Assembly (NCBI GenBank): GCA_026014875.1
Contig: JAOZHO010000017.1
Location: forward strand, 11,611-75,610
DNA from: Candidatus Bathyarchaeota archaeon
GTDB lineage: Archaea > Thermoproteota > Bathyarchaeia > TCS64
Reading direction: 5' to 3'
Length of the DNA: 64,000 bases
Below are positions 564 through 50,922 of the stretch, piece after piece (position 1 is the stretch's first letter; every line of letters starts with the position of its first letter). The translations under genes and the position numbers were made by a program. A model generated the notes under the pieces. The model was given only the letters and a program-made list of their open reading frames with translations. It had not been told where the DNA came from and did not search any database.

Positions 564-611
564 AGGGCTTTGGACCCTCCGACGCGAGTTCGAATCTCGC
601 CCGGGCTACCA
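564..611 (+). repeat. tRNA 3'-half fragment copy 1 (anticodon arm, T-arm GTTCGAATC, acceptor 3' strand, CCA), att-like direct repeat
   Basis: Sequence agggCTTTGGAccct...gcgaGTTCGAATctcgc-ccgggct-a-cca has a T-stem/loop and 3' acceptor plus CCA. No matching 5' acceptor strand lies upstream, so this is a partial tRNA. The loop cTTTGGa suggests anticodon TTG (Gln-like). Confidence 0.6.
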
Positions 612-692
612 ACCAATCTACTTGAATTATCGCGAACGTTATTTCTACAATCCTCAAAAGTTTTTATTATTGACCTAATAAACAAAGATTGT

Positions 693-1070
693 ATGAGAAC
701 AAATTTCAAATCGAAACGCTTTCAATACAATGGAATTCATAAAAAAGTTGTTCCAACCCATGAAAAACGGGGTCGACTCGTTCTAACCTCAGGTATTAAG
801 GGGCCTCATATTTTTCGGGATAGTGTTCATATCCATCAGGAAAATAGTAGTAATATCAACCTCTCTTCAGGTGATTTCAATCTCATTAGAGTAAATGTCA
901 TTCCTAATCAAACAGCAATTGTGAATCTTAGTGGATTTGCATCTTTCGAAGTTTGGCCTGAGATTGGGGTGATATCAATGTTCTCTGGTCTAGTTACGAA
1001 TAATGTTTTACATCTAGAAGCTGACGGGTCGGGAGTTGTACATATCTGTAAACTAATTGCTTCAAGATAA
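693..1070 (+). CDS. hypothetical protein (AT-rich cassette ORF between att copies 1 and 2)
   Basis: 125-aa ORF starting at an internal ATG of the 570..1070 frame. The reported 570 start lies inside the tRNA fragment, so it was trimmed. Low-complexity, AT-rich, no recognisable domain. Confidence 0.25.
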   Translation: MRTNFKSKRFQYNGIHKKVVPTHEKRGRLVLTSGIKGPHIFRDSVHIHQENSSNINLSSGDFNLIRVNVIPNQTAIVNLSGFASFEVWPEIGVISMFSGLVTNNVLHLEADGSGVVHICKLIASR

Positions 1071-1140
1071 TTAAATTAAACATTGACACTTTTCTCTTTA
1101 AAGGCATAGTAGAATTAAAATAACTGGTGTGTGTATGGGC

Positions 1141-1164
1141 GTTCCAATCTCGCCCGGGCTACCA
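1141..1164 (+). repeat. tRNA 3'-end fragment copy 2 (gttcCaatctcgcccgggctacca), att-like direct repeat
   Basis: 24 nt identical to 588..611 of copy 1 except one G/C change. Marks the end of the AT-rich segment 612..1140. Confidence 0.6.
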
Positions 1165-1238
1165 TGTTCCAGATTCGAGTTTCTGCGCGCGAGGTAGATA
1201 TTATACCATGAAGGGACTTTTCTTCATTTGACCTCATC

Positions 1239-2051
1239 ATGGCTAAACACGGAGACATACGAAAACAATGGAATAATCTAGCGGATTACTATATTTCGAA
1301 AGTTAGAGACGGAACAGACTTATGGAGACACTTCCTGAACGCCCCTGCGTTCACGAAGATGATAGGAGACGTACAAGGACTACGAATGCTAGACATGGCA
1401 TGTGGCGAGGGATACTTTTCCAGATTCTATGCCAAGGCCGGTGCACTAGTCACAGGGATAGACTTCAGCGAGAGCCAGATAGCAGCAGCCCAGGAAGCGG
1501 AGACGAGGGCTCCCCTAGGAATCCAGTATCACCTCGCTGATGCCTCTAAAATGGGTAACATTGAATCCGAGAGCTTCGACATCGTCATCAGTTTCATGGC
1601 ATTAATGGACATCGAAAACTACGAGGGAGCAATAATGCAAGCGGCCCGAGTGCTGAAGCCCGATGGTCGATTCGTGTTTATCTTAATCCATCCATGCTTC
1701 GGTTGGTCCAGAAGAGGATATGACGGAGAAATCTTGGTTAGATGGGAGTATAGAAGACTCGAGGACGGCTCCAGAGAGCCCCATTATCTCAAGATTTTCG
1801 AGTATTTCACGAACCATTCATACAAAATGCGGTGGAAGGACGATGAAGGCCACGAGGTTGCTGTCACAACTATGTTCCACCGGACTCTCACAGATTATAT
1901 GAAGACGTTAAGGAAAAACGGATTCCTAGTATCGCAGATCGAGGAGCCGCGGCCCGTTGAGGCTAAATTCGAGCCTAATGACATGAGCAAGCTAACAAAG
2001 ATACCCCACACAATCTGTGTTGAAGCTCTGAAACTTAATCCACATGTGTGA
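1239..2051 (+). CDS. class I SAM-dependent methyltransferase (Methyltransf_11-like)
   Basis: Motif I LDMACGEGYFS and post-I acidic residue (GIDFSE), Rossmann-type MTase layout, 270 aa. Confidence 0.8.
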   Translation: MAKHGDIRKQWNNLADYYISKVRDGTDLWRHFLNAPAFTKMIGDVQGLRMLDMACGEGYFSRFYAKAGALVTGIDFSESQIAAAQEAETRAPLGIQYHLADASKMGNIESESFDIVISFMALMDIENYEGAIMQAARVLKPDGRFVFILIHPCFGWSRRGYDGEILVRWEYRRLEDGSREPHYLKIFEYFTNHSYKMRWKDDEGHEVAVTTMFHRTLTDYMKTLRKNGFLVSQIEEPRPVEAKFEPNDMSKLTKIPHTICVEALKLNPHV

Positions 2052-2088
2052 GGGGGGGTTAGATGACTCTTATCCTACTGCGCGCTCT

Positions 2089-2127
2089 TACCCTCCGACG
2101 CGAGTTCGAATCTCACCCGGACTAGCA
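2089..2127 (+). repeat. tRNA 3'-end fragment copy 3 (diverged), att-like direct repeat
   Basis: accctccgacgcgagttcgaatctcAcccggActaGca, which has a few substitutions relative to copy 1. Confidence 0.55.
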
Positions 2128-2199
2128 GAATTCTTATCATCGAATCAGAGTTCTCAACCCTTATATCTATGGCATGATTCACACCATATGGTTGAATAA

Positions 2200-2475
2200 A
2201 TGGAGAACGCCACAACCATCGACAAACAGGGAAGGCTGGTCCTACCCTCCCACATCCGGGAGGCCCTGGGCCTCAAGGGAGGGGGGGAGGTAACCATAAG
2301 GCTGGACGGCTCCAGGGTCATCATAGAACCCGTCTCCAACGACGTCAAAAAGAATGTCCGGGAGTGGGAAGAACTCGCGAAGAGCCTCAACGCAGAGGCA
2401 TTCACCGAGGAGACCGACGAGAGCTGGAAGTGGACGAGCAGTGACTACGCCCGGAGAAAACTCGGCCTATCCTGA
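2200..2475 (+). CDS. AbrB/SpoVT-type swapped-hairpin antitoxin (VapB-like)
   Basis: KQGRLVLPSHIREALGLKGGGEVTI is typical of the AbrB/MazE N-terminal DNA-binding fold. Sits directly upstream of a PIN gene. Confidence 0.7.
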   Translation: MENATTIDKQGRLVLPSHIREALGLKGGGEVTIRLDGSRVIIEPVSNDVKKNVREWEELAKSLNAEAFTEETDESWKWTSSDYARRKLGLS

Positions 2476-2479
2476 CGGC

Positions 2480-2941
2480 GTCGTCGACGTCGGCATCATC
2501 GTCCCCACGTGCTTCGAGAACCCCCTCAAGGAGCACAGCACGGCGTTCCTCGCGGACGTCCTCACCCAGAGGAAGAAGGCCGCCATACCCGTCACAGCGA
2601 TCATCGGAGCCTACCACGTCGCCACCCGATACCTGCGGATCCCCAGGATGACGGTGAAGAAGACCCTGGGCGGCATCCTGAACACGGGCTCACCCGCCCT
2701 CTACGGCCACGTCTCACCCCAGACGGCCTGGGACGCCCTCGACTACGCCTCCACGTACCTCATCGAGTCGTGGGACGGATACCTCATCTCCCTGGCCCGA
2801 AGCCTCAGGTCGACCGTCGTCTTCTCCCTCGACGAGGAGCTCCGCAAGGTCAGAGAGATAACCCTCGTGAACCCGTTCCCCAGAGAAGACGTCGAGCGGT
2901 ACCACGACTCCCTGAAAAAAGGATTAAGACAACATCCCTAG
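2480..2941 (+). CDS. PIN-domain ribonuclease toxin (VapC-like), GTG start
   Basis: The 2354..2941 frame begins inside the antitoxin in another frame, so it was trimmed to GTG at 2480/2483 (VVDVGIIVP...). Acidic positions fit a PIN fold: N-terminal D, E in CFENP, D in DALDY, and C-terminal VVFSLDEEL (the PIN 'TxDxDF' equivalent). Confidence 0.55.
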   Translation, partial: VVDVGIIVPTCFENPLKEHSTAFLADVLTQRKKAAIPVTAIIGAYHVATRYLRIPRMTVKKTLGGILNTGSPALYGHVSPQTAWDALDYASTYLIESWDGYLISLARSLRSTVVFSLDEELRKVREITLVNPFPREDVERYHDSLKKGLRQHP

Positions 2942-2983
2942 ATCATGCGTCCAACCCCGGGTCAACCAAGGGTGGACGACGCA

Positions 2984-3021
2984 GGACCCCTCCGACGCGA
3001 GACCGAATCTCCCCCGATCTA
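2984..3021 (+). repeat. tRNA 3'-end fragment copy 4 (most diverged), att-like direct repeat
   Basis: ggacccctccgacgcgagaccgaatctcccccgatcta aligns to copy 1 with substitutions and one indel. Confidence 0.5.
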
Positions 3022-3168
3022 TCAATCCTCATCTGCCATGATATCCCGGGTCTTCACTCAATCACGCGCGAGGTCCCCCGTGGCCTCTATGCGCCAGCCC
3101 CGTCAAGGATGTCCCCCCGCATGGGAATGTTTATCTACCATTTTACCATAACTCAAACCAGTGGTATT

Positions 3169-3438
3169 ATGGCATCATTGGTGGAGTCGGACGGGTCAGG
3201 CCGGATAGTGATACCCAAGAGGATACGGGACGAGCACGGAATCACGGGCAGGACCCAGTTCCTCCTCACCAGCAACGGGAAGGGCCAGATCACACTCCAG
3301 AAGATAGACGTCGAGGAGATGGCCCAACGCCTCCAGGAGGAGCTCAGAGACGTCCCCGTCGAGGAGATGGCCAAGTCCATCAGGAAGGAGATAAATGACA
3401 AAATCAGATCAAGGCGCCGGGACCTTCCTCCTCGATAA
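3169..3438 (+). CDS. AbrB/SpoVT-type antitoxin (VapB-like)
   Basis: MASLVESDGSGRIVIPKRIRDEHGI... matches the AbrB swapped-hairpin motif. The long 2509..3438 frame spans att copy 4 and is a GC-frame artifact. The gene overlaps the downstream PIN gene by 44 nt. Confidence 0.65.
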   Translation: MASLVESDGSGRIVIPKRIRDEHGITGRTQFLLTSNGKGQITLQKIDVEEMAQRLQEELRDVPVEEMAKSIRKEINDKIRSRRRDLPPR

Positions 3439-3835
3439 CAACGTCTTCGTCTCCGCCATCAAGGACCCCGCCAGGGAGACGGCCACCCTCACGCTCATCC
3501 TGGAGATGATCCGGGACAAGAGCGTGGGCCTGGTGGGCAACGAGTTCCTGGCGGAGGAGATGGCCCGATACGCCGAGGCCTTCAGGTCGGAGACCGCCTC
3601 CCTCCTCCTCCACGCCCTCATCTCCAAGATGGACATCGTGGACGTCCAGGAGAGATTCACCGCCGCCTGCAGGAGCATCATGGGCACGGAGGACCCCGCC
3701 GACCTCCTCCACGCCGCCACCTGCCTCCAGACGGGCGCCACACTCATCACCAACGACCGCCACTTCAACAGCATAAGAGACCAGGGGATCATCGAGGTCT
3801 GGAGCACGGCAGAGGCCATCCGGAGGCTCCTCTGA
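3395..3835 (+). CDS. vapC: PIN-domain toxin VapC
   Basis: Classic PIN motifs FLLDNNVFVSA (N-terminal D) ... E ... D ... TLITNDRHF, 146 aa. Confidence 0.8.
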   Translation: MTKSDQGAGTFLLDNNVFVSAIKDPARETATLTLILEMIRDKSVGLVGNEFLAEEMARYAEAFRSETASLLLHALISKMDIVDVQERFTAACRSIMGTEDPADLLHAATCLQTGATLITNDRHFNSIRDQGIIEVWSTAEAIRRLL

Positions 3836-3891
3836 GCATCTCGCACCACGGACGTCCCTCCCCGGCCGCCCCACCGAACAGCCCCCCCTGG

Positions 3892-4726: not shown

Positions 4727-6034
4727 ATGTTGCTGATTCCATTAATGATCGGAATGGAGTGCGACGTCCTAGTCATAGGCGCAGGAATCCTGGGCCTCAG
4801 CTCGGCCTACCACATCAAGAGGGAGAACCCCGGCAAGAATGTGGCGGTCATCGACAAGCACGGCGGCCCCGGGCAGGGGAACAGCGCCAAGAGCGAGGGG
4901 GGCTTCAGGAACCTCTTCACCTCGGAGACCAACTTCCTCCTCGCGGACTCCACAATCGACTGGTTCAAACACATGGAAGAAGAACTGGGCCACCACATCG
5001 GCCTGTCCTACATCGGCTACCTCTTCCTACTGAACGAGGAGCACTACACCGGCCAGAAGGAGTCCTGGGACAGGATCAGGGACCACGGGGGCGAGATGAG
5101 GGTGCTGGATAGGGAGGAGCTCGAGGAGATGATACCCGGTCTGGTCACCCACTTCGGGGACGACGAGGAGGCGGAGCTCCTGGGGCTAAACCCGGTCGAC
5201 TACGGCGTCTTCGGGAAAAAATGCGGATGCATCGACGCCGACGCCCTCACCAGGGCCTACGAGGCGGAGTTCCTCAATCTGGGCGGCGAGATACACTACG
5301 GCACCGAGGCGAAGAGCCTCACCCTGGAACCCGAACAGGAGCTGGAGATACCCGGGGAGCCCTTCGTCTGGCAGGACGCCCACATAACCGGCGCAGAGAC
5401 CACCCAGGGGAAGATACGAGCCGACACGACCGTCGTGGCCGCCGGGGTCTGGTCGGAGGGGCTCCTGGACCCCCTCGGCGTAGACTCCTTCATGAGGCCC
5501 AAGAAGAGGCAGCTCTTCGTCTTCAAGGACCCCCGGCTGGAATCCCTCTTCAACGTGGAGGGATTCAACGAGTACGGCACCATGCCCCTCACCATCCTGC
5601 CCAAGGCGGGCGTCCTATTCAGGCCGGAGCGGTCCGAGAACACCATCTGGCTGGCGTGCGCGGACAACCTGGGCAGGAAATACGAACTCGAGGAGGACCC
5701 CCAAGCCGAGGAGGGCTTCTACACCGAGAGCATATACCACATCCTGGTGAAGTACTTCCCCTGCTTCGAGGGCGTCCGCCCGATGAACAGTTGGGCGGGC
5801 CAGTACGCCATCAACGGCTACGACGAGCTGCCGGTGGTGACTCCCGCACCCGGCATGATCTACGTGGGCGCGGCCAGCGGAAGCGGCATCATGAAGTGCG
5901 ACTCTATCGCCCGCATAGCGGCGGCCCTATACGCCGGCAGGGAGGAGGCCGAGCTCTACGGCGGGCGCCGCTTCAGGGTGGCGGACCTCGGCATCCACAA
6001 CAGGAACGTCGAGAGGGAGAGCCTGATTCTTTAG
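4727..6034 (+). CDS. FAD-dependent oxidoreductase (DAO family, glycine/sarcosine-oxidase-like)
   Basis: DVLVIGAGILGLSSAY is a dinucleotide-binding motif. The C-terminal GxGxxG-type closing motif is typical of DAO enzymes. The start is probably ATG 4727 or 4754, and the reported 4565 start is an upstream extension. Confidence 0.8.
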   Translation: MLLIPLMIGMECDVLVIGAGILGLSSAYHIKRENPGKNVAVIDKHGGPGQGNSAKSEGGFRNLFTSETNFLLADSTIDWFKHMEEELGHHIGLSYIGYLFLLNEEHYTGQKESWDRIRDHGGEMRVLDREELEEMIPGLVTHFGDDEEAELLGLNPVDYGVFGKKCGCIDADALTRAYEAEFLNLGGEIHYGTEAKSLTLEPEQELEIPGEPFVWQDAHITGAETTQGKIRADTTVVAAGVWSEGLLDPLGVDSFMRPKKRQLFVFKDPRLESLFNVEGFNEYGTMPLTILPKAGVLFRPERSENTIWLACADNLGRKYELEEDPQAEEGFYTESIYHILVKYFPCFEGVRPMNSWAGQYAINGYDELPVVTPAPGMIYVGAASGSGIMKCDSIARIAAALYAGREEAELYGGRRFRVADLGIHNRNVERESLIL

Positions 6035-7746: not shown

Positions 7747-9669
7747 GTGCGTCGATCCATGACACCTGAAATCGAAGTCGTATTCCAACCCCACGGGAAG
7801 CGCGCCAAGTTTTCCCAGGGCGTCACCGTGATGGAGGCGGCGCAGGCCCTCGGCGTGGACATCTCCGCCCTCTGCGGGGGGAAAGGGAAATGCGGGAAGT
7901 GCAAGGTCAGAGTCTTGGGCGGTGTCGGGACGGATTCCAAACCCACAGATAAAGAGCTGAAGCACCTCTCCGAGGATGAGATCCGGGACGGATTCAGGCT
8001 CGCGTGCACCACTCGCCTGGGGGCCTCCACGGTCATCCACGTGCCCCTGAGGAGCAGGATAGGCAGGCAGAGGCTGCAGACGGGGGGCCTCGAAGTCCCC
8101 GTGAAGCTGGACCCCCTCGTGAAAAAGTATCGCGTGACCATGCCCCCGCCCCATCTCAGAGACTCCAGGGCGGACGAGGACAGGCTCCTCGCCTCGTTGA
8201 CCGAGGAACATGGCCTCCCGGAGCTAGGGATCGACTTCGACATCTACCGGGTCCTCCCCAGGGTCGTCCGGGAGGCCAAGTGGGACGCGACCGCCGTCGT
8301 CTGGAAGGACAGGATCATCGCCCTGGAGCCCGGGGACACATCTGACAGGTGCTTCGGGCTCGCCGTTGACGTGGGGACCACCAAGCTCGCCGGCTTCCTC
8401 ATCGACCTCAAGAGGGGGGAGGTCGTCGCCGTGGCTGCGAGGATGAACCCTCAGATCCCCTTCGGGGAGGACGTCATGTCCCGGGTCTCCCATGTCATGA
8501 GCGGGGGATGGGATGCCCTCGAGAAGCTCCAGGACGCCGTCGTCTCGGGGGTCAACGAGATCGTCGTGGAATGCTGCGGGAAAGCCGATGCGAGACCCGA
8601 GGAGATCTACGAGCTCAACTTCGTGGGGAACACGGTGATGCAGCTCCTCCTCCTCGGAGTCTGGCCGAGACACGTCGTTTCCTCCCCCTTCACTCCAGCT
8701 ATAAGGAGGGGGGTCGACGTCAAAGCCGCTACTTTGGGTTTAAGGGTTAATCTAGGTGCCAACGCCCACCACCTGCCGGTGATAGGGGGATTCGTGGGGG
8801 CGGACAACGTCGCGATGGTGCTTGCGTCGGGGATTCTAGAGTCCGACGAGATGATCATAGCCATCGACGTGGGCACCAACACCGAGATCGACCTGGGGAA
8901 CAGGGAGCTTGTCATGGTGGCCTCGTGCGCGTCGGGTCCGGCCTTCGAGGGGATGCACATAAAGTTCGGGATGAGGGCCACCACAGGGGCCATAGAGAAG
9001 GTCGGCATCGACCCCGAGACCTTCGACGTATACTATCGGACCATCGGGGACGCACCTCCCATCGGGATCTGCGGCTCCGGCATAGTGGACGCCCCGGCGG
9101 AGTTCCTCAAGGCGGGCCTCATCATGCCCCGGGGGAACTTCGTCACCGGAATGACTGAGCGGACGGACCGGTTGAGGAAGGGTCCGGACGGCTGGGAATT
9201 CGTGATAGCGTGGGGGAAGGAGACGGATATCGGCACGGACATCGTCGTCACCCTCAAGGACATCAGGGAGCTCCAGAAGGCCAAGGCAGCCATCCACACC
9301 GGCGCAGACCTCCTGATGCAGAGGATGGGAATACGCGAGGCCGAGATCAGCAAGCTCGTGGTCGCTGGGGCCTTCGGCAACTACATCGACCCCGAGAACG
9401 CCCGCATCATAGGGATGTACCCTGAGATTCCCTTGGAACGCATCGAGTTCGCCGGCAACCTCGCAGGAACGGGCGCCAGAATGACACTAATGAGCAGGGA
9501 GATGAGGGAGCACGCCGAGATGATCAGCTCCAGGGTCAGGTACCACGAGCTCGCGGCGGACCCGGGCTTCCAGAAGGAATACATCGACTCCCTGAACTTC
9601 CCCCACTCCGACCTATCGAAATACCCAGAGACCGTGGAGCTACTCCGGAGATACGGTCAGAAGATCTGA
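7747..9669 (+). CDS. RACo-like protein (DUF4445): N-terminal plant-type 2Fe-2S ferredoxin plus ASKHA ATPase domain, putative reductive activator of corrinoid proteins
   Basis: N-terminal CGGKGKCGKCKV ... C is a 2Fe-2S ferredoxin. The central AVDVGTTKLAGFLIDL...NPQIPFGEDVMSRVS and the later AIDVGTNTE are ASKHA phosphate motifs. Length is 640 aa. Confidence 0.65.
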   Translation: MRRSMTPEIEVVFQPHGKRAKFSQGVTVMEAAQALGVDISALCGGKGKCGKCKVRVLGGVGTDSKPTDKELKHLSEDEIRDGFRLACTTRLGASTVIHVPLRSRIGRQRLQTGGLEVPVKLDPLVKKYRVTMPPPHLRDSRADEDRLLASLTEEHGLPELGIDFDIYRVLPRVVREAKWDATAVVWKDRIIALEPGDTSDRCFGLAVDVGTTKLAGFLIDLKRGEVVAVAARMNPQIPFGEDVMSRVSHVMSGGWDALEKLQDAVVSGVNEIVVECCGKADARPEEIYELNFVGNTVMQLLLLGVWPRHVVSSPFTPAIRRGVDVKAATLGLRVNLGANAHHLPVIGGFVGADNVAMVLASGILESDEMIIAIDVGTNTEIDLGNRELVMVASCASGPAFEGMHIKFGMRATTGAIEKVGIDPETFDVYYRTIGDAPPIGICGSGIVDAPAEFLKAGLIMPRGNFVTGMTERTDRLRKGPDGWEFVIAWGKETDIGTDIVVTLKDIRELQKAKAAIHTGADLLMQRMGIREAEISKLVVAGAFGNYIDPENARIIGMYPEIPLERIEFAGNLAGTGARMTLMSREMREHAEMISSRVRYHELAADPGFQKEYIDSLNFPHSDLSKYPETVELLRRYGQKI

Positions 9670-9724: not shown

Positions 9725-10699
9725 CTATACTTTTCCCTCTGGTATCGTCACGGAGAATCGGCATCGGGGGTCTCCTGCGAGGACGCTTTCCAGGAGTTCC
9801 ACCTCCAGCTCCTCCCCGAAGACGGTCTCGAAGGGGAGCTTCCCGTAGCCTCCGCTGCAGTAGCACCACTCGGGGGAGACTTCGGGCTCCCCGGTGATTA
9901 TGGAGGACCTCGCGAGGGGGCAGTGGCATGCGTGGTAGCGTTTCATCAAGGGGTCGTCCTCTCCGAGGTAGGCGTCGGGGTCGTAGGGGATCTTGGTGAA
10001 GTATATCCTGTCCCCGCGGCGGACGCCTCCCAGCATCTCCTGGTTCCCCCTGACGAACTCCACCACCCTCGGGGTGATCTCCTGCTCGTACCAGACCTTC
10101 CCCTCGGCGAGGTGCTCCTCCAGCACGGCGACGGCCCTCTCATGCCTCCCCTTGAGGAACTCGTCGACGCTCCCCGACTCCTCGTAGAGCTTCCTGAGGC
10201 CGTCGAAGGCCTCCAACGGTATCCTGTGATGGTTCCCGGCGAGGACCCTCCGGTACACCTCTGGCGGAAGCTCCTCCATGAGCCGCTCCATTAGGCGCTG
10301 GGTCACGTAGGGGACATCCTCCGGGGGGGACCCGAGGGGGGGCATCTCGACGCCGTCGAAGACCCTCTTCATCGTCTCCTCGTCGACCAGGGATTCGAGC
10401 CTCGCCGAGATCGAGGGCAGGACGGTTCTCCCCCCCAGGACGGCGGTGAAATAGATGTAGAGGTCGTTCCTGTCGGTGGCGTAGAAGTAGCGGGACAGGG
10501 CCACTAGGCGGTCCAGGGAGTTCTCCCTCCGGGACACGAGGCGTGCCAGGTAGCCCCTGAGGTCGTCGAGGGTGGCTGATTCGACGGTTTTGTCCCCCAG
10601 CTCTCCTTCGAAATCCCGTACCGCCTCGACGGCCTTCTCGATCTGTGCTTCGTCCTGCTCTCTATTCCGCAGGTATTCCCTGAACTCCTTCTCCCTCAT
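9725..10699 (-). CDS. hypothetical protein with C-terminal Cys/His cluster (HACHCP...CYCSGG...C)
   Basis: 324-aa ORF with good coding potential and no recognised family. Confidence 0.45.
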   Translation of the reverse strand: MREKEFREYLRNREQDEAQIEKAVEAVRDFEGELGDKTVESATLDDLRGYLARLVSRRENSLDRLVALSRYFYATDRNDLYIYFTAVLGGRTVLPSISARLESLVDEETMKRVFDGVEMPPLGSPPEDVPYVTQRLMERLMEELPPEVYRRVLAGNHHRIPLEAFDGLRKLYEESGSVDEFLKGRHERAVAVLEEHLAEGKVWYEQEITPRVVEFVRGNQEMLGGVRRGDRIYFTKIPYDPDAYLGEDDPLMKRYHACHCPLARSSIITGEPEVSPEWCYCSGGYGKLPFETVFGEELEVELLESVLAGDPRCRFSVTIPEGKV

Positions 10700-10756
10700 T
10701 TCTCGGGCCCCTGTCCAGATGGATCATCGGATGGGCGAGGACGGCTATATAATGTT

Positions 10757-10845
10757 GTTCAAATCGTTGTTGCCGTCCAAGCATCGTTTATGGCGAAGCG
10801 GGGGCCTCTGAAGCATCTTTAAGGCTTGTTGCGCTCACGTGGCTG
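10757..10845. repeat. 89-bp direct repeat copy A (about 82% identical to 12204..12292), 58 bp upstream of minus-strand gene start at 10699
   Basis: Manual alignment shows about 16 mismatches in 89 bp versus copy B. A TATATAAT element lies between the repeat and the gene start. Confidence 0.6.
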
Positions 10846-10901
10846 CTCTTACGGCATCATCGCCGCGCGTGCTTCTGGGTAAAGGCGAACACGATGCATT
10901 G

Positions 10902-12143
10902 CTATAATTTGCGGAGTTTGGGCACAATTAAAACCAGTATAACGAAGATGATTACCATAATTGCTCCATAGATACTCTGGGCAAGCGGCGCTCCAAGTGT
11001 TTCAGCTATGGCTCCCAGTGCCACGCTCCCCAGTACGCCAAATCCGATGCTTAGCTGCCATATGCCCATGGCACGGCCCCGCTGCTCTTCGGTAACGTTG
11101 AGTTGGAACAGGATGTGTTGCATGGCGTCGTGTCCCGCCGCTGTTATTCCAACTATGCCTATGAAGAATAGTGAGAGAGGATACGATGATGAGTTGGCGA
11201 ACAGAATCAGTGAAACACCGAATGCGAGGAAGAGGCCGAGTTGTATCCGTCCCTTGTACTCGTAGTCTCCGAGAGAGGCAAGAGTCAGTCCCGCTATTAG
11301 GCCGCCTACCGAGCGTACGGTGCTGAACATGCCGAGGCCGACGGCGCCTACGCCCAGGATGTCCCGGGCAAAGACGGGTAGGAGTGCTGAATAGGAGAAG
11401 CCGAACATCTCACAGGTGGCTGCCATCACCATCAAGGCGAGGATGACCCTGTTGTTCAGGACGATCTGTATTCCCTCAACAAGGTCGCTCCAGAGCGATT
11501 GCGTTTTAGTGATCGCTCTTTCTTCAATCCCCCGGATGTAAGCTGTTATTCCAATTGCCAGGATGTTAGCCGCGGTTATCACGAAGAAAGGCCACTCCAT
11601 ACCAAACAAATGGATTATAATTCCGGCGACGGCACCACCGATGATGCCGATGCCTCGCAATCCAACCGCGTTAAGAGAGATACCGCTCATGGCGCCCTCA
11701 CGGCCGACGATATCCACAATGAAAGCCTGGCGTGCGGGGCCTTCGAAGGCACGGATGGAACCCCAGACAAATGTGATCAGGAGGACATGCCAAAGTTGAA
11801 TCCAGCCTCGCAGGACCAGGTAACCCAATAGAAAACCACAGGCGGAATACAAGGCCAAGGCTACTATCTGTAACTTTTTCCGATCAACCCTGTCGGCTAC
11901 AGCTCCTGCCAACATTCCCAAGATTAGATTTGGTGCCGAGCGTGTTGCCCACACTAGGCCCAGGGATAAGGGGGAATCAGTTAGTTCCAAGACCAACCAT
12001 CCTGAAGACACCATCATCATGATGTTTCCAAGGGACACAGTAATCGTAGTCAAAAAAAAGAGACCAAAATTCCGAGACTTGAAAGGTTGAAAAATCCGTA
12101 TATTGGCGATGCCAGAAAATAGATCAGTCACTTTATTTGCCAC
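10902..12143 (-). CDS. MFS transporter
   Basis: 413 aa with 12 predicted hydrophobic segments and a MFS-like loop 2-3 motif (G..ADRVDRKK). Confidence 0.85.
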   Translation of the reverse strand: MANKVTDLFSGIANIRIFQPFKSRNFGLFFLTTITVSLGNIMMMVSSGWLVLELTDSPLSLGLVWATRSAPNLILGMLAGAVADRVDRKKLQIVALALYSACGFLLGYLVLRGWIQLWHVLLITFVWGSIRAFEGPARQAFIVDIVGREGAMSGISLNAVGLRGIGIIGGAVAGIIIHLFGMEWPFFVITAANILAIGITAYIRGIEERAITKTQSLWSDLVEGIQIVLNNRVILALMVMAATCEMFGFSYSALLPVFARDILGVGAVGLGMFSTVRSVGGLIAGLTLASLGDYEYKGRIQLGLFLAFGVSLILFANSSSYPLSLFFIGIVGITAAGHDAMQHILFQLNVTEEQRGRAMGIWQLSIGFGVLGSVALGAIAETLGAPLAQSIYGAIMVIIFVILVLIVPKLRKL

Positions 12144-12203
12144 GGTTTATGCCTTTCTGTACTCCTACAGCGCCTATTTACATTTACCCCGCGCACGATT
12201 GTC

Positions 12204-12292
12204 GTTCAAAACGTTGTAACCGCCCAAGCATCGATAATGACGAGGCGGGAGCCTCCGAAGCATCTTTAAGGCCGACTGCGCTCACATGGCTG
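12204..12292. repeat. 89-bp direct repeat copy B, 61 bp upstream of MFS gene start (12143) and ending 4 nt before the + strand gene at 12297
   Basis: See copy A. Same orientation, and a GTAAATGTAAATAGG TATA-like element lies between the repeat and the MFS start. Confidence 0.6.
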
Positions 12293-12296
12293 GACC

Positions 12297-12506
12297 ATGA
12301 AGGGCGACGGGAGAGCCAGGAGCAACATCAGTATAGGCGCCGAGGTCGATATAGTCCTCAAGAAGGACCAGAGGACCGGCAGGCTCACCCGGGGAAAGGT
12401 TAAGGACATACTCACGAGGTCAGCGAACCACCCCCACGGCATCAAGGTCCGGCTGACCGACGGGAAGGTCGGGCGGGTCAAAGAAGTAGTTTCTCAACCA
12501 GAGTGA
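12297..12506 (+). CDS. YwbE-like small protein (DUF2196)
   Basis: 69 aa. The run EVDIVLKKDQRTGRLTRGKVKDILTRSANHPHGIKVRLTDGKVGRV closely resembles Bacillus YwbE. Confidence 0.5.
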   Translation: MKGDGRARSNISIGAEVDIVLKKDQRTGRLTRGKVKDILTRSANHPHGIKVRLTDGKVGRVKEVVSQPE

Positions 12507-12558
12507 ATCGGAACTCTTAGTGTTCTCTTCGAGGATATACTGTCTAAATAAATGTAGT

Positions 12559-13026
12559 TCAAGCTGCCTCGGCGACGTCGACGACCCTGAAAGCCACGAC
12601 CTTCCCCAGGTCTCGGGTCCTGATCTCCAGTCCGTACATGTGATTCCCCGACCCGAAGTTGATCCTCTCCGTCTCCATCACCCTGCGGTCCACGAGGAGG
12701 CCCATATTCAGTGTGACGGGGCATACCGCCCCGGGATCCACTCCCACCGCCTCCCTGACCTCCGCGAAGCTCGCGATGCTCACCTTCTCACCGATGGCCT
12801 CCCCGGCTTTCCCGTAGTCCACCCTGTCGCCCCCCAGGAGGAGGACTGCGTATCTCCCCCCTTCCCTGTCCTTGAGGATCATCGTCTTGCAGATCTCGTC
12901 GACGTTGATCTCCTCCTTGGAGAAACGGATCACGTCCTCTATGGAGAGGGCTCTCTCCTCGAGCTCGATGAGCCTGTACTCGACGCCCATGCCGTCCAGG
13001 ACCTCGGCGGATCTCAGCTTCGCCAT
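12559..13026 (-). CDS. YbaK/ProX-type aminoacyl-tRNA deacylase domain protein
   Basis: 155 aa with YbaK/EbsC fold signatures (TMILKDREGGRYAVLLLGGDRVDYGK...). Confidence 0.75.
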   Translation of the reverse strand: MAKLRSAEVLDGMGVEYRLIELEERALSIEDVIRFSKEEINVDEICKTMILKDREGGRYAVLLLGGDRVDYGKAGEAIGEKVSIASFAEVREAVGVDPGAVCPVTLNMGLLVDRRVMETERINFGSGNHMYGLEIRTRDLGKVVAFRVVDVAEAA

Positions 13027-13110
13027 AACGTTTCCCTTTATGGGTTAGTTTGTTAGTTCTTTGATCGGCTATTTGAAATAAATCTTGGGAAAGAGGTGAT
13101 TCGATATAAA

Positions 13111-23699: not shown

Positions 23700-24224
23700 T
23701 CAGAATTTCTCTTGGGACACTATCTCCGAGAGGGGCTTCCGCCGATCCGTCTCGTGGAACGCCTTCTCGGCCTCGGGGTAGCCCAGGGGGCTCACGGCGA
23801 CCACGTCGTAGTCTTCAGGGATACCCAGGGCACCCTTGATGGTCTCATTCTCGAAATCCCCTATCCAGCATGTCCCAAGTCCCTCCGCCCTGGCGGCGAG
23901 GATGAACTGGGTGAACGCGATGGAGATGTCCAACAGGAACGACATGTCCCCCATGTAGCCCCCCCTGTTAGAGCCGGTCTTGCGCCCGCAGGCCACCACG
24001 ACTATCGGGGCCTCGTCGATCCACGCTTGCCTGCCGCAGGTCGCCACGACCTCCGCCTTCTTCTCGGAGTCGCTCACCAGGACGAATTTCCAGGGCTGCC
24101 GGTTGCTCCCCGAGGGGGAGAGCCTCACAGCCTCCAGCACCCTCGCCATGGCTTCCGGGTCGGGTTCATCGGGCCTGAAAGTGCGGACGCTCCGCCTCGT
24201 CTTCACGACTTCGTAAAACTCCAT
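23700..24224 (-). CDS. nitroreductase family protein
   Basis: RRSVRTFRPDEPDPEAMARVLEAVRLSPSGSNRQPWKF is the nitroreductase FMN-binding signature. Trimmed to MEFYEVV. Confidence 0.85.
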   Translation of the reverse strand: MEFYEVVKTRRSVRTFRPDEPDPEAMARVLEAVRLSPSGSNRQPWKFVLVSDSEKKAEVVATCGRQAWIDEAPIVVVACGRKTGSNRGGYMGDMSFLLDISIAFTQFILAARAEGLGTCWIGDFENETIKGALGIPEDYDVVAVSPLGYPEAEKAFHETDRRKPLSEIVSQEKF

Positions 24225-24315
24225 GATCCTCGACATGATGAGGGTGCACGGATTCTTAAGATGTGAGGTGAAGGGCATCGACAGTCTTTTTATCACATGT
24301 GAACTACCGCTTTCC

Positions 24316-27160: not shown

Positions 27161-27239
27161 CTCCTCCCTTTTCCCGCTATCAGTTTTCTCTGGCAAGCCC
27201 TGATAAGCTTCATCAATCTCCAAGGACATTGTTTCAACC

Positions 27240-27659
27240 ATGACCCGTCTCACAAGAGATGAGATCTCGAAAGCCCTCGCCGAGATGAACGAGGCCTTCA
27301 ACGCCCACGACCTCGATGCGGTCTTGGAAAAACTCCACGAAGATATTCTGTTCGAGAACTGGACCGGGGGCAGTGTGAAGGGGATCGAGTCGCTGAAAAC
27401 GGCGTGGTCCCCCTGGTTCAAGGATCACGGAGGCTTCCGGTTTACCCACGAGGACGTCCTCATCGACGAGGAGGAGCAGAAGGCCGTCACTCGCTGGTGT
27501 CTGGACTGGCCGTCCTCGGAGGCGGGCTATGCGGGGCTGCATGAGACTAGGCGGGGCGTCGACGTGATGCGGTTCGAGGACGGCAAGGTCATCGAGAAGC
27601 TCACCTACTCCCAGACCACCCTCGAGATCGATGGTCGCAGTGTGAGGCTCCGAGCCTGA
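27240..27659 (+). CDS. SnoaL/NTF2-like (ketosteroid-isomerase-like) protein
   Basis: 139 aa with the DLDAVLEKLHEDILFENW pattern of the SnoaL_2 fold. Confidence 0.6.
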   Translation: MTRLTRDEISKALAEMNEAFNAHDLDAVLEKLHEDILFENWTGGSVKGIESLKTAWSPWFKDHGGFRFTHEDVLIDEEEQKAVTRWCLDWPSSEAGYAGLHETRRGVDVMRFEDGKVIEKLTYSQTTLEIDGRSVRLRA

Positions 27660-27945
27660 AACTCCCCTTCCCCGGAATGCCAAAACGACAGTTGGATACG
27701 TCATAGGCATCAGGTCTGATAGCCCAGATATTGCGGCGGCTCACCGATCACTGGGAGGATGATTCGGGCAATATGAAGAACCTGGGCATAAGGGAACTCG
27801 GTGTGCATTTGGTTACCTTGGCCTTCGGCTTCGTCATCCTCGCCGGCTGCTTCTGTTTCTTTTAGGATAATCTTTTTAACCTCAGCCACGGCCCTTTAGC
27901 TCCATAACCTGAGCGAAGTGACCGGACCGATGTTAGCTGAATGAG

Positions 27946-45997: not shown

Positions 45998-46083
45998 TGG
46001 CGCCGCGGAAGGGATTCGAACCCTTGAGGCACAAAGGCCACTGGTTTTCGAGACCAGCACGATAACCACTCTGTCACCACGGC
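45998..46083 (-). tRNA. tRNA-Ser (anticodon CGA), long variable arm, CCA encoded
   Basis: Minus-strand reading GCCGTGG...CTGGT-CTCGAAA-ACCAG...variable arm...AGGGTTCGAATCCCTT-CCGCGGC-G-CCA. The acceptor pairs 7/7 with one G·U. The 86-nt length fits class II tRNA. Confidence 0.8.
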
Positions 46084-49758: not shown

Positions 49759-50922
49759 CTATTTACCGGTGATCTTTCCCGCATGATCCTCGATTGACTG
49801 GGCAATCTCCTCTAGAACCTCGACGGGTTTGATGAGGGGAATCCTCATGTGGCTCTCCCCCGTGACCCCGAAGGCGGTTCCGGGCCGGGCCAGAATCTTC
49901 TTCTCCTTGAGCAGCGACTCGCAGAACTCCTCTGAGCCCATGCCCAGTCCCCCGATGTTGGGAAACAGATAGAACGCTCCCTCTGGGTTGTGGCAGTTGA
50001 TGCCCTCGATCTCGGAGAGGCGGGGCACCATGAATCTGCGTCTCCTGTCGTACTCCTCCGCCATGGCTTTCACGGGTTCCCACGATCCCCGCATGGCCGC
50101 GACTCCCGCAATCTGGACGAAGGTGTTGGTCCTGTAGCCCAGGGGGATCTTCTGGATCCGGGATGTGAGGCTTTTGTCGGCGATGAGGTATCCGAGGCGC
50201 CATCCTGTCATGGCGAATGTCTTGGAAAAGCTGCTGCTGATGAGTGTCCTCTCCCTCATCCCCGGGAGGGAGGCGATGGTCATATGCTCTATCCCGTCCC
50301 AGACGAACTCGCAGTAGACCTCGTCGCTGAGGACGAGGAGGTCCTCATCTATCGCCACGTCGGCTATCCCCTTCAGCTCCTCCTTGGTGAAGACGGTCCC
50401 GGAGGGGTTGTTGGGATTGCAGAGGACTATCATCTTCGTCTTCCCTGTAACCCTCTCGTTCAACGCTTCGAGGTCGAGGCGGTAGCCCTCATCCTCGTCC
50501 AATGGGACCCCCACCTCCCTGGCGCCGATGTACTCGACGAGGTTGGAGTAGGACATGAAATAGGGCTCCAGGAGGACGACCTCTTCCCCGGGGTTCACGG
50601 TGCCCGCCATGGAGGAGAAGAGGGACACACCGCTCCCGGCTGTGACCGTGACATCCCCGACTTCCCAGTCGACGCCGTGTTTGCAGTGGTATTCAGCGAT
50701 GGCGCTCCGCAAAGCGAGGAGGCCGTGGGTAGGGGGGTAATGGGTTTTCCCCTCCGCAATCCCTTTCTGGAGGGCGTCCGTGATGTGGCCCGGAGTGTCA
50801 AAGTCGGGGTCTCCCCCGGCCAAGTTGATCACCCCGTTCATCCCCCTCGCCATCGCGACGACTCTTGCGTGTGATCGCGCCTTCATCGACGCGAGGCGCT
50901 TTTCGAAGAATCTTTCGGCCAT
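49759..50922 (-). CDS. pyridoxal-phosphate-dependent aminotransferase, class I (aspartate aminotransferase family)
   Basis: CNPNNPSGTV and SFSKTFAMTGWRLGY give a PLP-Lys context. Confidence 0.85.
   Translation of the reverse strand: MAERFFEKRLASMKARSHARVVAMARGMNGVINLAGGDPDFDTPGHITDALQKGIAEGKTHYPPTHGLLALRSAIAEYHCKHGVDWEVGDVTVTAGSGVSLFSSMAGTVNPGEEVVLLEPYFMSYSNLVEYIGAREVGVPLDEDEGYRLDLEALNERVTGKTKMIVLCNPNNPSGTVFTKEELKGIADVAIDEDLLVLSDEVYCEFVWDGIEHMTIASLPGMRERTLISSSFSKTFAMTGWRLGYLIADKSLTSRIQKIPLGYRTNTFVQIAGVAAMRGSWEPVKAMAEEYDRRRRFMVPRLSEIEGINCHNPEGAFYLFPNIGGLGMGSEEFCESLLKEKKILARPGTAFGVTGESHMRIPLIKPVEVLEEIAQSIEDHAGKITGK

Follow-up and report, generated by a model that had tools for sequence, protein, structure and literature searches.

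In the 64,000-nucleotide stretch of contig JAOZHO010000017.1 (Candidatus Bathyarchaeota archaeon, assembly GCA_026014875.1) analyzed here as a whole and referred to as the window, three genes adjoin an intergenic element that occurs twice: a plus-strand DUF2196/YwbE-like gene, a minus-strand gene for a transporter of the major facilitator superfamily (MFS) and, downstream of the latter, a minus-strand gene of the DUF6144 family (Table 1). A repeat search and blastn over the window delimited the element as an ungapped direct repeat of 93 nucleotides (nt), copies A and B of which are identical at 77 of the 93 positions (83%; within-window blastn E-value, 4e-23) and differ by 11 transitions and 5 transversions, with no 3-nt periodicity. 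The initial annotation had described the pair as 2 direct repeats of 89 bp, about 82% identical, upstream of adjacent minus-strand genes; this description is borne out, with the repeat extending 4 nt further and the right-hand ends being the same. The geometry also holds (58 nt between annotated repeat A and the ATG at 10699; 61 nt between annotated repeat B and the GTG at 12143), as do the 4-nt gap between copy B and the DUF2196 gene (12293–12296, followed by the ATG at 12297), the AT-rich boxes between repeat and gene (CTATATAA at 10745–10752, and GTAAATGTAAATAG, the reverse complement of 12174–12187) and, by Pfam, the gene identities, namely DUF6144 with a Cys-rich C-terminus, MFS_3/MFS_1 and DUF2196. 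What the annotation did not mention is that the 2 copies bracket the MFS gene, with copy A following its stop codon as well as preceding the DUF6144 gene.

The similarity between the copies ends sharply at 93 nt on both sides. A duplication reaching into the DUF2196 coding region or the DUF6144 leader was considered and rejected, local alignments of the flanks scoring no better than shuffles (1021/2000 and 1699/2000). Outside this intergenic position the element was found neither in the window nor in about 200 kb of related loci nor in viral contigs, and the copy count covers the first 2 of these sets: a 49-nt degenerate core matches the window twice, at copies A and B (expectation from shuffles, 0), and low-stringency blastn of the window returned, beyond the 2 copies, merely chance matches of 10–19 nt. 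A pattern scan of a genome collection that does not include the source genome gave a single chance match, in a Lachnospiraceae metagenome-assembled genome, and a metagenome pattern scan gave 4 contigs, all of them this locus, although the scan misses samples known to carry the element (related loci L004, L005, L010, and L022). The dispersal expected of a miniature inverted-repeat transposable element (MITE), which the initial annotation had named as evidence that would overturn its proposal, is not seen, there being 2 copies in the window and, in related loci, copies at this intergenic position alone.

The gene between the copies is compositionally foreign. Across it, the GC content drops from 0.62–0.67 to approximately 0.50–0.53, and its GC content at third codon positions (GC3) is 0.57 in the window and 0.50–0.58 in L002, L004, and L022, compared with 0.76–0.92 in the flanking genes and approximately 0.8–0.9 in nearly all long open reading frames (ORFs) of the window. 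Homologues of the transporter in L016, L017, and L018 (75%, 71%, and 62% identical, respectively) reside in unrelated neighborhoods, have the GC3 of their own neighbors and align over the coding region alone, with neither the element nor shared flanks found in these contexts. The amino acid composition of a membrane protein was rejected as the sole cause of the GC dip, because GC3 is affected (0.57 versus approximately 0.85) and the homologues elsewhere match their own neighbors. In the 1,354-bp segment between the copies we found the MFS ORF only, with no integrase and no transposase, and no terminal inverted repeats at its ends (an equal or better score in 160/2000 shuffles). Near the ends, a weak GC-rich inverted similarity between 10860–10875 (ATCGTGCGCGG) and 12189–12199 (CGCGCGGCGAT) is not significant by the same measure and is probably due to chance.

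Loci carrying and lacking the transporter gene

Related loci, all on metagenomic contigs, were collected by DUF6144 and MFS protein homology, exact-protein look-ups and one pattern scan of metagenomes, with tblastn serving to map them; the exact-protein look-ups with the MFS and DUF6144 proteins of the window gave no match. Wherever the source gives names, the DUF6144 and MFS homologues are assigned to "Candidatus Bathyarchaeota archaeon." The full arrangement, with the DUF2196 gene pointing away from consecutive MFS and DUF6144 genes, is present in L002, L004, L015, and L022; L003 (the same contig as L014) begins inside copy B and carries the MFS and DUF6144 genes, the DUF2196 gene being off the contig, and L012 is limited to the DUF2196 side, with copy B and the initial portion of the MFS gene. 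The conservation in related genomes on which the initial annotation had made its proposal depend is observed in all 6 of these loci. In the window and in each of them, the element lies on both sides of the MFS gene wherever the flank is on the contig.

Other loci, L005/L006, L010/L011, and L013, are devoid of the entire 1,354-bp segment. In these, the DUF2196 and DUF6144 genes are directly divergent, 143–148 nt apart, and exactly 1 copy of the element is located approximately 4 nt from the DUF2196 ATG, such that 4 nt, 93 nt and approximately 50 nt add up to a single intergenic region. Their DUF6144 proteins are 76–77% (L005/L006 and L010/L011) and 92.5% (L013) identical to that of the window, and L013, which comes from the same sample as L003, encodes a DUF2196 protein 98.6% identical to that of the window. 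Thus, the transporter gene is polymorphic among close relatives, being accompanied by 2 copies of the element where present and replaced by 1 copy where absent.

In the neighbor-joining tree of DUF6144 proteins, rooted on L007 (a 70% identical homologue in another context), the MFS-less L005 and L010 are sister to the clade containing all MFS-bearing loci, and the MFS-less L013 is nested within that clade, beside the window and L015. The simplest reading would be 1 insertion followed by loss in L013, where the direct repeats may have recombined to delete the gene or homologous recombination may have replaced the allele. The left part of the single L013 copy is 97% identical to copy B of the window and its right part 89% identical to copy A, a pattern that a B × A crossover and an ancestral-type allele predict equally and that does not separate the two. 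The same contig (Ga0255055_10072491) is mosaic when compared with window positions 12297–13026, its tRNA_edit gene being 62% identical, versus 77–92% in other relatives, which points to strain recombination or a chimeric assembly right beside the insertion site. At four-fold degenerate sites, the identity between the window and L003/L015 is 0.92–0.93 for the MFS gene, 0.82 for DUF6144 and 0.73 for DUF2196; the spread of the MFS segment among these strains may therefore postdate the divergence of its flanks.

Putative promoter boxes and divergence of the copies

Alignments A2, A3, A4, and A7, in the minus-strand orientation of the window, show a common order of CAGCCAYGTGAGCGCAG, CCTTAAAGATGCTTCGG, a variable C-rich spacer with indels, CATAAACGATGCTTGG and CAACGnTTTGAACAACA. 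Beyond the element, single and A copies run into TTATATAG, which is located approximately 50 nt before the DUF6144 ATG and retained in all of them, and then into the DUF6144 leader. This box is absent after B copies, which instead run into unrelated sequence with AAATGTAAATAGG, approximately 30–40 nt before the MFS start codon and invariant in all B-side flanks, that of L022 included. A survey of upstream regions in the window revealed TTTAA-type boxes 25–35 nt before many start codons (e.g., TCTTTTAAGG before the gene starting at 50922), and on this ground TTAAAG is read as the putative TATA box of DUF2196, with a near-leaderless mRNA. On the same ground, TTATATAG is the likely DUF6144 TATA box and AAATGTAAATAG a candidate promoter of the MFS gene itself, inserted together with it. 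With these assignments, the element would be mostly untranscribed DNA between 2 back-to-back core promoters; 2 opposed and conserved TATA-like boxes lie at promoter-like distances from both start codons. The proposal that a promoter-region module had been duplicated upstream of the 2 minus-strand genes is supported, and so is the suggested two-way role of copy B, because the single ancestral copy constitutes the whole divergent intergenic region between DUF2196 and DUF6144. A further region of the window, the very AT-rich interval at 13027–13095 between the divergent tRNA_edit (minus strand) and M20 peptidase (plus strand) genes, with long runs TTAGTTTGTTAGTTCTTTGAT...ATTTGAAATAAATCTT, is probably another compact two-way promoter.

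Table 1. Positions of the genes, repeat copies and promoter-like motifs at the locus, in window coordinates.
Feature	Position	Strand	Remarks
Repeat copy A	10753–10845		between MFS stop codon (56 nt off) and DUF6144 TATA-like box
Repeat copy B	12200–12292		4 nt from DUF2196 ATG; upstream of the MFS gene's own putative promoter
Inter-copy segment, 1,354 bp	10846–12199	−	MFS gene with its own 56-nt 5′ flank and 56-nt 3′ flank
MFS_3/MFS_1 transporter gene, 413 aa	10902–12143	−	Pfam; GC3 0.57
DUF6144-family gene, 324 aa	9725–10699	−	Pfam; Cys-rich C-terminus
DUF2196/YwbE-like gene, 69 aa	12297–12506	+	Pfam; divergent partner of the DUF6144 gene in the MFS-less arrangement
GATGCTT motif 1, copy B	12258–12264	−	directly abuts TTAAAG box
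GATGCTT motif 2, copy B	12226–12232	−	32 nt start-to-start from motif 1
GATGCTT motif 1, copy A	10811–10817	−	motif search/alignment
GATGCTT motif 2, copy A	10779–10785	−	motif search/alignment
Putative DUF2196 TATA box TCTTTAAG	12263–12270	+	center approximately 30 nt before ATG
Putative DUF6144 TATA box TTATATAG	10745–10752	−	directly after copy A, outside the repeat
Putative MFS TATA region GTAAATGTAAATAG	12174–12187	−	within the inserted segment

The 2 copies are conserved in complementary halves: copy A in the DUF6144-side half (motif 2 and CAACGnTTTGAACAACA) and copy B in the DUF2196-side half (CAGCCATGTGAGC and TTAAAGATGCTTC). Over the same 4 genomes, the DUF2196-proximal part has 12/37 variable columns in copy A versus 4/37 in copy B (p = 0.046), and the DUF6144-proximal part 8/36 versus 15/36. 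TTAAAG is invariant in 8/8 B and single copies of alignment A3 and in copy B of L022, and it is altered in 3 of the 5 A copies. To judge from these patterns, the DUF2196-side half of copy A is probably a relaxed, vestigial DUF2196 promoter, and the DUF6144-side half of copy B is likewise apparently relaxed. In L022, copy B retains only CAGCCATGTGAGC...TTAAAGATGCTTCGG, followed after approximately 25 nt by the MFS TATA region, with motif 2 and the GAACAACA block deleted, and copy A retains CGATGCTTGG...GAACAACATTTTATAG, its left half having decayed (GATGATT, and TCGGAG instead of TTAAAG). The MFS reading frame of this locus is intact and starts at ATGATGGAC. In L002 (3759–3850 versus 5202–5294), copy B is 89% identical to the copy A of the same locus, the corresponding values being 82% for the window and 72% for L004 and L015. 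Its clustering with the A copies in the tree also suggests that the L002 copies have undergone gene conversion. Taken together, the complementary conservation, the TTAAAG pattern, L022 and L002 show that there is no requirement for the duplication in its entirety and that each copy is held mainly by its function for the original neighbor.

The divergence between copies A and B (17%) is close to that of the deepest MFS-bearing lineages (18–19%), which fits duplication of the resident sequence shortly before the clade radiated and requires no divergent donor copy. Between the window and L004, the element is 81–82% identical, compared with 0.63–0.72 at four-fold degenerate sites of the adjacent genes; the corresponding figures for the window and L010 are 77–80% and 0.52–0.58. 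Within the element, conservation peaks at the 2 GATGCTT motifs, which are spaced 32 nt start-to-start: across 13 copies, these are variable in 2/14 columns versus 56/77 elsewhere (p = 6e-5), with 2/182 versus 163/1001 deviating cells. The near-invariance of the motifs in both copies favors some regulatory role.

Origin of the duplication and competing explanations

We consider it likely, with a probability of about 0.8, that the 93-nt repeat is the resident DUF2196–DUF6144 intergenic region, duplicated when the foreign MFS gene was inserted, and that the copies have since been kept mainly by the halves that serve their original neighbors. The ancestral state would have been a pair of divergent DUF2196/YwbE and DUF6144 genes, with the element making up nearly the whole region between them, including back-to-back core promoters and the 2 GATGCTT motifs. 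A horizontally acquired MFS gene, with its own short promoter flank, would have been inserted there in the ancestor of this Bathyarchaeota-type clade, resulting in the order DUF2196 (leftward), copy B, MFS (rightward), copy A and DUF6144 (rightward). Selection would afterwards have maintained the DUF2196 TATA box and initiation region of copy B and, in copy A, the stretch immediately before the DUF6144 TATA box, with the redundant halves drifting, being homogenized by gene conversion or being deleted, and the MFS gene could be lost precisely through the direct repeats. As for the duplication itself, we infer 2 most likely origins, namely that a circular molecule with the MFS gene and 1 copy of the region was integrated by a single crossover (Campbell-type integration), or that a long staggered break was filled in and repaired.

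Several observations weigh against this insertion scenario or limit it. The asymmetry of the right half is, on its own, not significant (p = 0.13). In the redundant halves, GATGCTT deviates in 2/70 cells versus 35/295 for neighboring columns, and such near-invariance is a hint that the duplicates may be more than neutral scars. Neither a donor molecule nor the element next to an MFS gene in another context was found in the collections searched, which are incomplete, and the way in which a 93-bp duplication was produced stays at the level of a proposal. The succession of 1 gain and a later loss is drawn from a single-gene neighbor-joining tree of metagenomic contigs that show mosaicism, as in L013, and the single copy of L013 could equally be a recombined-in allele of the ancestral type rather than the product of repeat-mediated deletion. 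Finally, the copy count extends to the window and approximately 200 kb of related loci, the source genome being absent from the genome collection searched.

A possible but doubtful alternative is that the repeat is a functional, duplicated regulatory platform, that is, an operator or upstream activating region at which a transcription factor occupies both GATGCTT motifs and places the MFS and DUF6144 genes, together with DUF2196, under common control. This is compatible with an origin by insertion and differs only in that both copies would be functional today; the motifs being the most conserved columns of the 13 copies, also in the redundant halves, and the element being more conserved than the four-fold degenerate sites of the flanking genes both speak for it. 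However, the MFS gene of L022 is intact with motif 1 alone upstream, and copy A of that locus has lost motif 1. Motif 1 abuts the TATA-like box of DUF2196 and could simply be its B recognition element (BRE), an explanation that does not extend to motif 2. The distance from the element to the TATA-like box also differs, from 0 nt before the DUF6144 box to about 13–20 nt before the MFS box, and no second paired GATGCTT site was found in the window or upstream of the 70% identical DUF6144 homologue in another context (L007). The common control of transporter and DUF6144 gene proposed in the initial annotation stays conjectural: the duplication is most readily accounted for as a side effect of MFS insertion, with each copy keeping mainly the half of its original neighbor, and the MFS gene of L022 is intact despite deletion of the copy B half with the second motif.

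A more specific and speculative version, which we regard as improbable, would have the element act as the operator of an unrecognized archaeal one-component regulator, the DUF6144 protein itself, bound at the 2 GATGCTT sites. The structural model of this protein is of high confidence (pLDDT 94.8) and predicts an N-terminal DNA-binding domain of the tyrosine-recombinase core-binding (SAM-like) type joined to a Cys-rich C-terminal part resembling Bet3, H-NOX and V4R domains. Pfam gave Phage_int_SAM_4 only, below threshold (E 0.018), a Foldseek search of the PDB with the model returned nothing significant, and no recombinase catalytic domain is present. On the strength of the model, the protein may be a candidate binder of the GATGCTT sites. 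The literature search yielded no papers mentioning DUF6144 and none informative on DUF2196/YwbE. If DUF6144 were such a regulator, with the V4R/H-NOX-like domain as its sensor, the duplication might have wired an acquired MFS exporter into the circuit in a single step, with the direct repeats keeping the acquisition reversible, which would account for the presence or absence of the MFS gene among near-identical strains. By-products of the analysis are a first structural hypothesis for the uncharacterized DUF6144 family, as a DNA-binding plus sensor-like protein, and a short candidate operator, 2 GATGCTT sites 32 nt apart. The locus adjoins a RACo corrinoid-activase gene (window 7747–9669, plus strand), and in relatives (L004 9015–16990; L005 6986–12880) several genes for MtmB-family methyltransferases and B12-binding proteins adjoin it, which puts the DUF6144 gene on the margin of a cluster for methylotrophic corrinoid methyltransferases.

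That the repeats are recombination sites of a mobile cassette, whether integron-like attC sites, the attL/attR sites of an element moved by an integrase or a pair of MITEs, is very unlikely. Direct repeats flanking a single foreign, promoter-bearing gene that is present in some close relatives and absent from others would suit such a cassette, as would the identity of the repeat with the sequence of the empty site, 1 copy of which L005, L010, and L013 carry at the same position. However, the insert, consisting of the MFS gene alone, has no integrase, transposase or terminal inverted repeats; the copies have no internal inverted repeat or hairpin (DNA folding z scores of −0.3 to −0.9 on both strands of both copies); no further copies were found in the window, the related loci, the viral contigs or, in other contexts, by the genome and metagenome scans; and members of the same MFS family occur in other genomes without the element. 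No IntI-type integrase was seen among the genes scanned with Pfam in the 2.5–20 kb interval, the window as a whole not having been screened systematically for IntI. A tRNA-derived att site was rejected, as ARAGORN found no tRNA gene near the locus, the sole one of the window being located at 45998–46083. An attC site or a MITE was likewise rejected for the lack of hairpins, terminal inverted repeats, inverted repeats within or between the copies, and extra copies.

Hardly credible is a structured RNA, as a leader or riboswitch-like element upstream of both minus-strand genes or, on the plus strand, of ywbE, for which the position upstream of genes and the sequence conservation are the sole support: Rfam cmscan of 10000–13000 on both strands gave 0 matches at E up to 10, single-sequence folds were no better than dinucleotide shuffles (RNA z −1.9 to +1.0), RNAalifold of the 13 copies, which derive from 9 contigs, gave −2.4 and −4.2 kcal/mol on the 2 strands with compensatory changes in 1/12 and 0/15 pairs, the putative DUF6144 promoter would not transcribe the element because its TATA-like box lies downstream of it, and on the plus strand just approximately 25 nt of the element follow the DUF2196 TATA-like box. 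The structured leader offered as an option in the initial annotation accordingly found no support on either strand. A small ORF was rejected given the 1-, 2- and 6-nt indels among the copies in the central C-rich spacer and the lack of 3-nt periodicity.

If the insertion scenario is right, the locus would be a well-documented natural example of how a compact archaeal genome accommodates a horizontally acquired gene: the gene enters a two-way promoter region, 93 bp of which are duplicated, the 2 copies come to split the original promoter functions, and relatives show successive stages, namely the state before insertion, intact duplicates, gene-converted copies, a half-deleted copy and loss. For annotation, it is also a warning that conserved repeats in front of neighboring genes do not necessarily mark shared regulation or an RNA element.

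Further long ORFs with low GC3 (0.28–0.59) are found in the window at 570–3874, 23712–24266, and 27234–27710, and could be additional foreign segments or ORFs in the wrong frame. The ORF at 2509–3438 has a subthreshold Pfam match to MazE_antitoxin (23.0 bits versus the curated cutoff of 24.7 bits).

Comparison with known systems

The element lacks the defining features of attC sites, MITEs, transposon target-site duplications, integrase-borne islands and structured RNAs, and it resembles several of these in part. As in islands bounded by attL and attR after Campbell-type integration, a foreign segment lies between direct repeats whose sequence occurs once in the empty site, precise loss through the repeats is possible, and presence or absence is polymorphic among close relatives. 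Unlike in such islands, where an integrase is encoded in the bracketed segment and the target is often a tRNA gene, no integrase was found in 10846–12199, the target is a promoter region, the insert is a single-gene segment of 1.35 kb, and the copies, 83% identical, appear to be evolving as promoter halves. Transposon target-site duplications share with the present case the doubling of the target sequence on either side of an insertion. They are usually a few bp long, and 93 bp is far longer; moreover, unlike at transposon insertions, there are neither terminal inverted repeats nor a transposase. Integron attC cassettes, those of archaeal integrons included, similarly consist of a single promoter-proximal ORF between similar but non-identical repeats of approximately 60–140 nt. 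In contrast to these, the present repeat forms no imperfect-palindrome hairpin and no array (2 copies, 1 gene), and it is the resident intergenic region of the neighboring genes.

The DUF6144 protein, for its part, can be compared with regulators of the recombinase fold, which bind repeated sites through a core-binding DNA-binding fold like the one predicted here; it has no recombinase catalytic domain at all, and its DNA-binding part is predicted to be fused to the Cys-rich Bet3/H-NOX/V4R-like domain.

On the side of promoter architecture, the closest parallel concerns haloarchaeal gas-vesicle genes, in which the GvpE upstream activating sequence sits between the divergent PA and PD promoters (PMC2241852). 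The 2 cases share opposed archaeal core promoters a few tens of nt apart and short conserved portions upstream of the BREs that possibly serve both directions. Unlike the GvpE site, the present region contains 2 GATGCTT motifs 32 nt apart, has a candidate binder only and has been duplicated as a whole around an inserted gene. By analogy, then, the feature would work like the direct repeats left by Campbell-type integration and, at the same time, like an archaeal region of divergent promoters that share short upstream sites.

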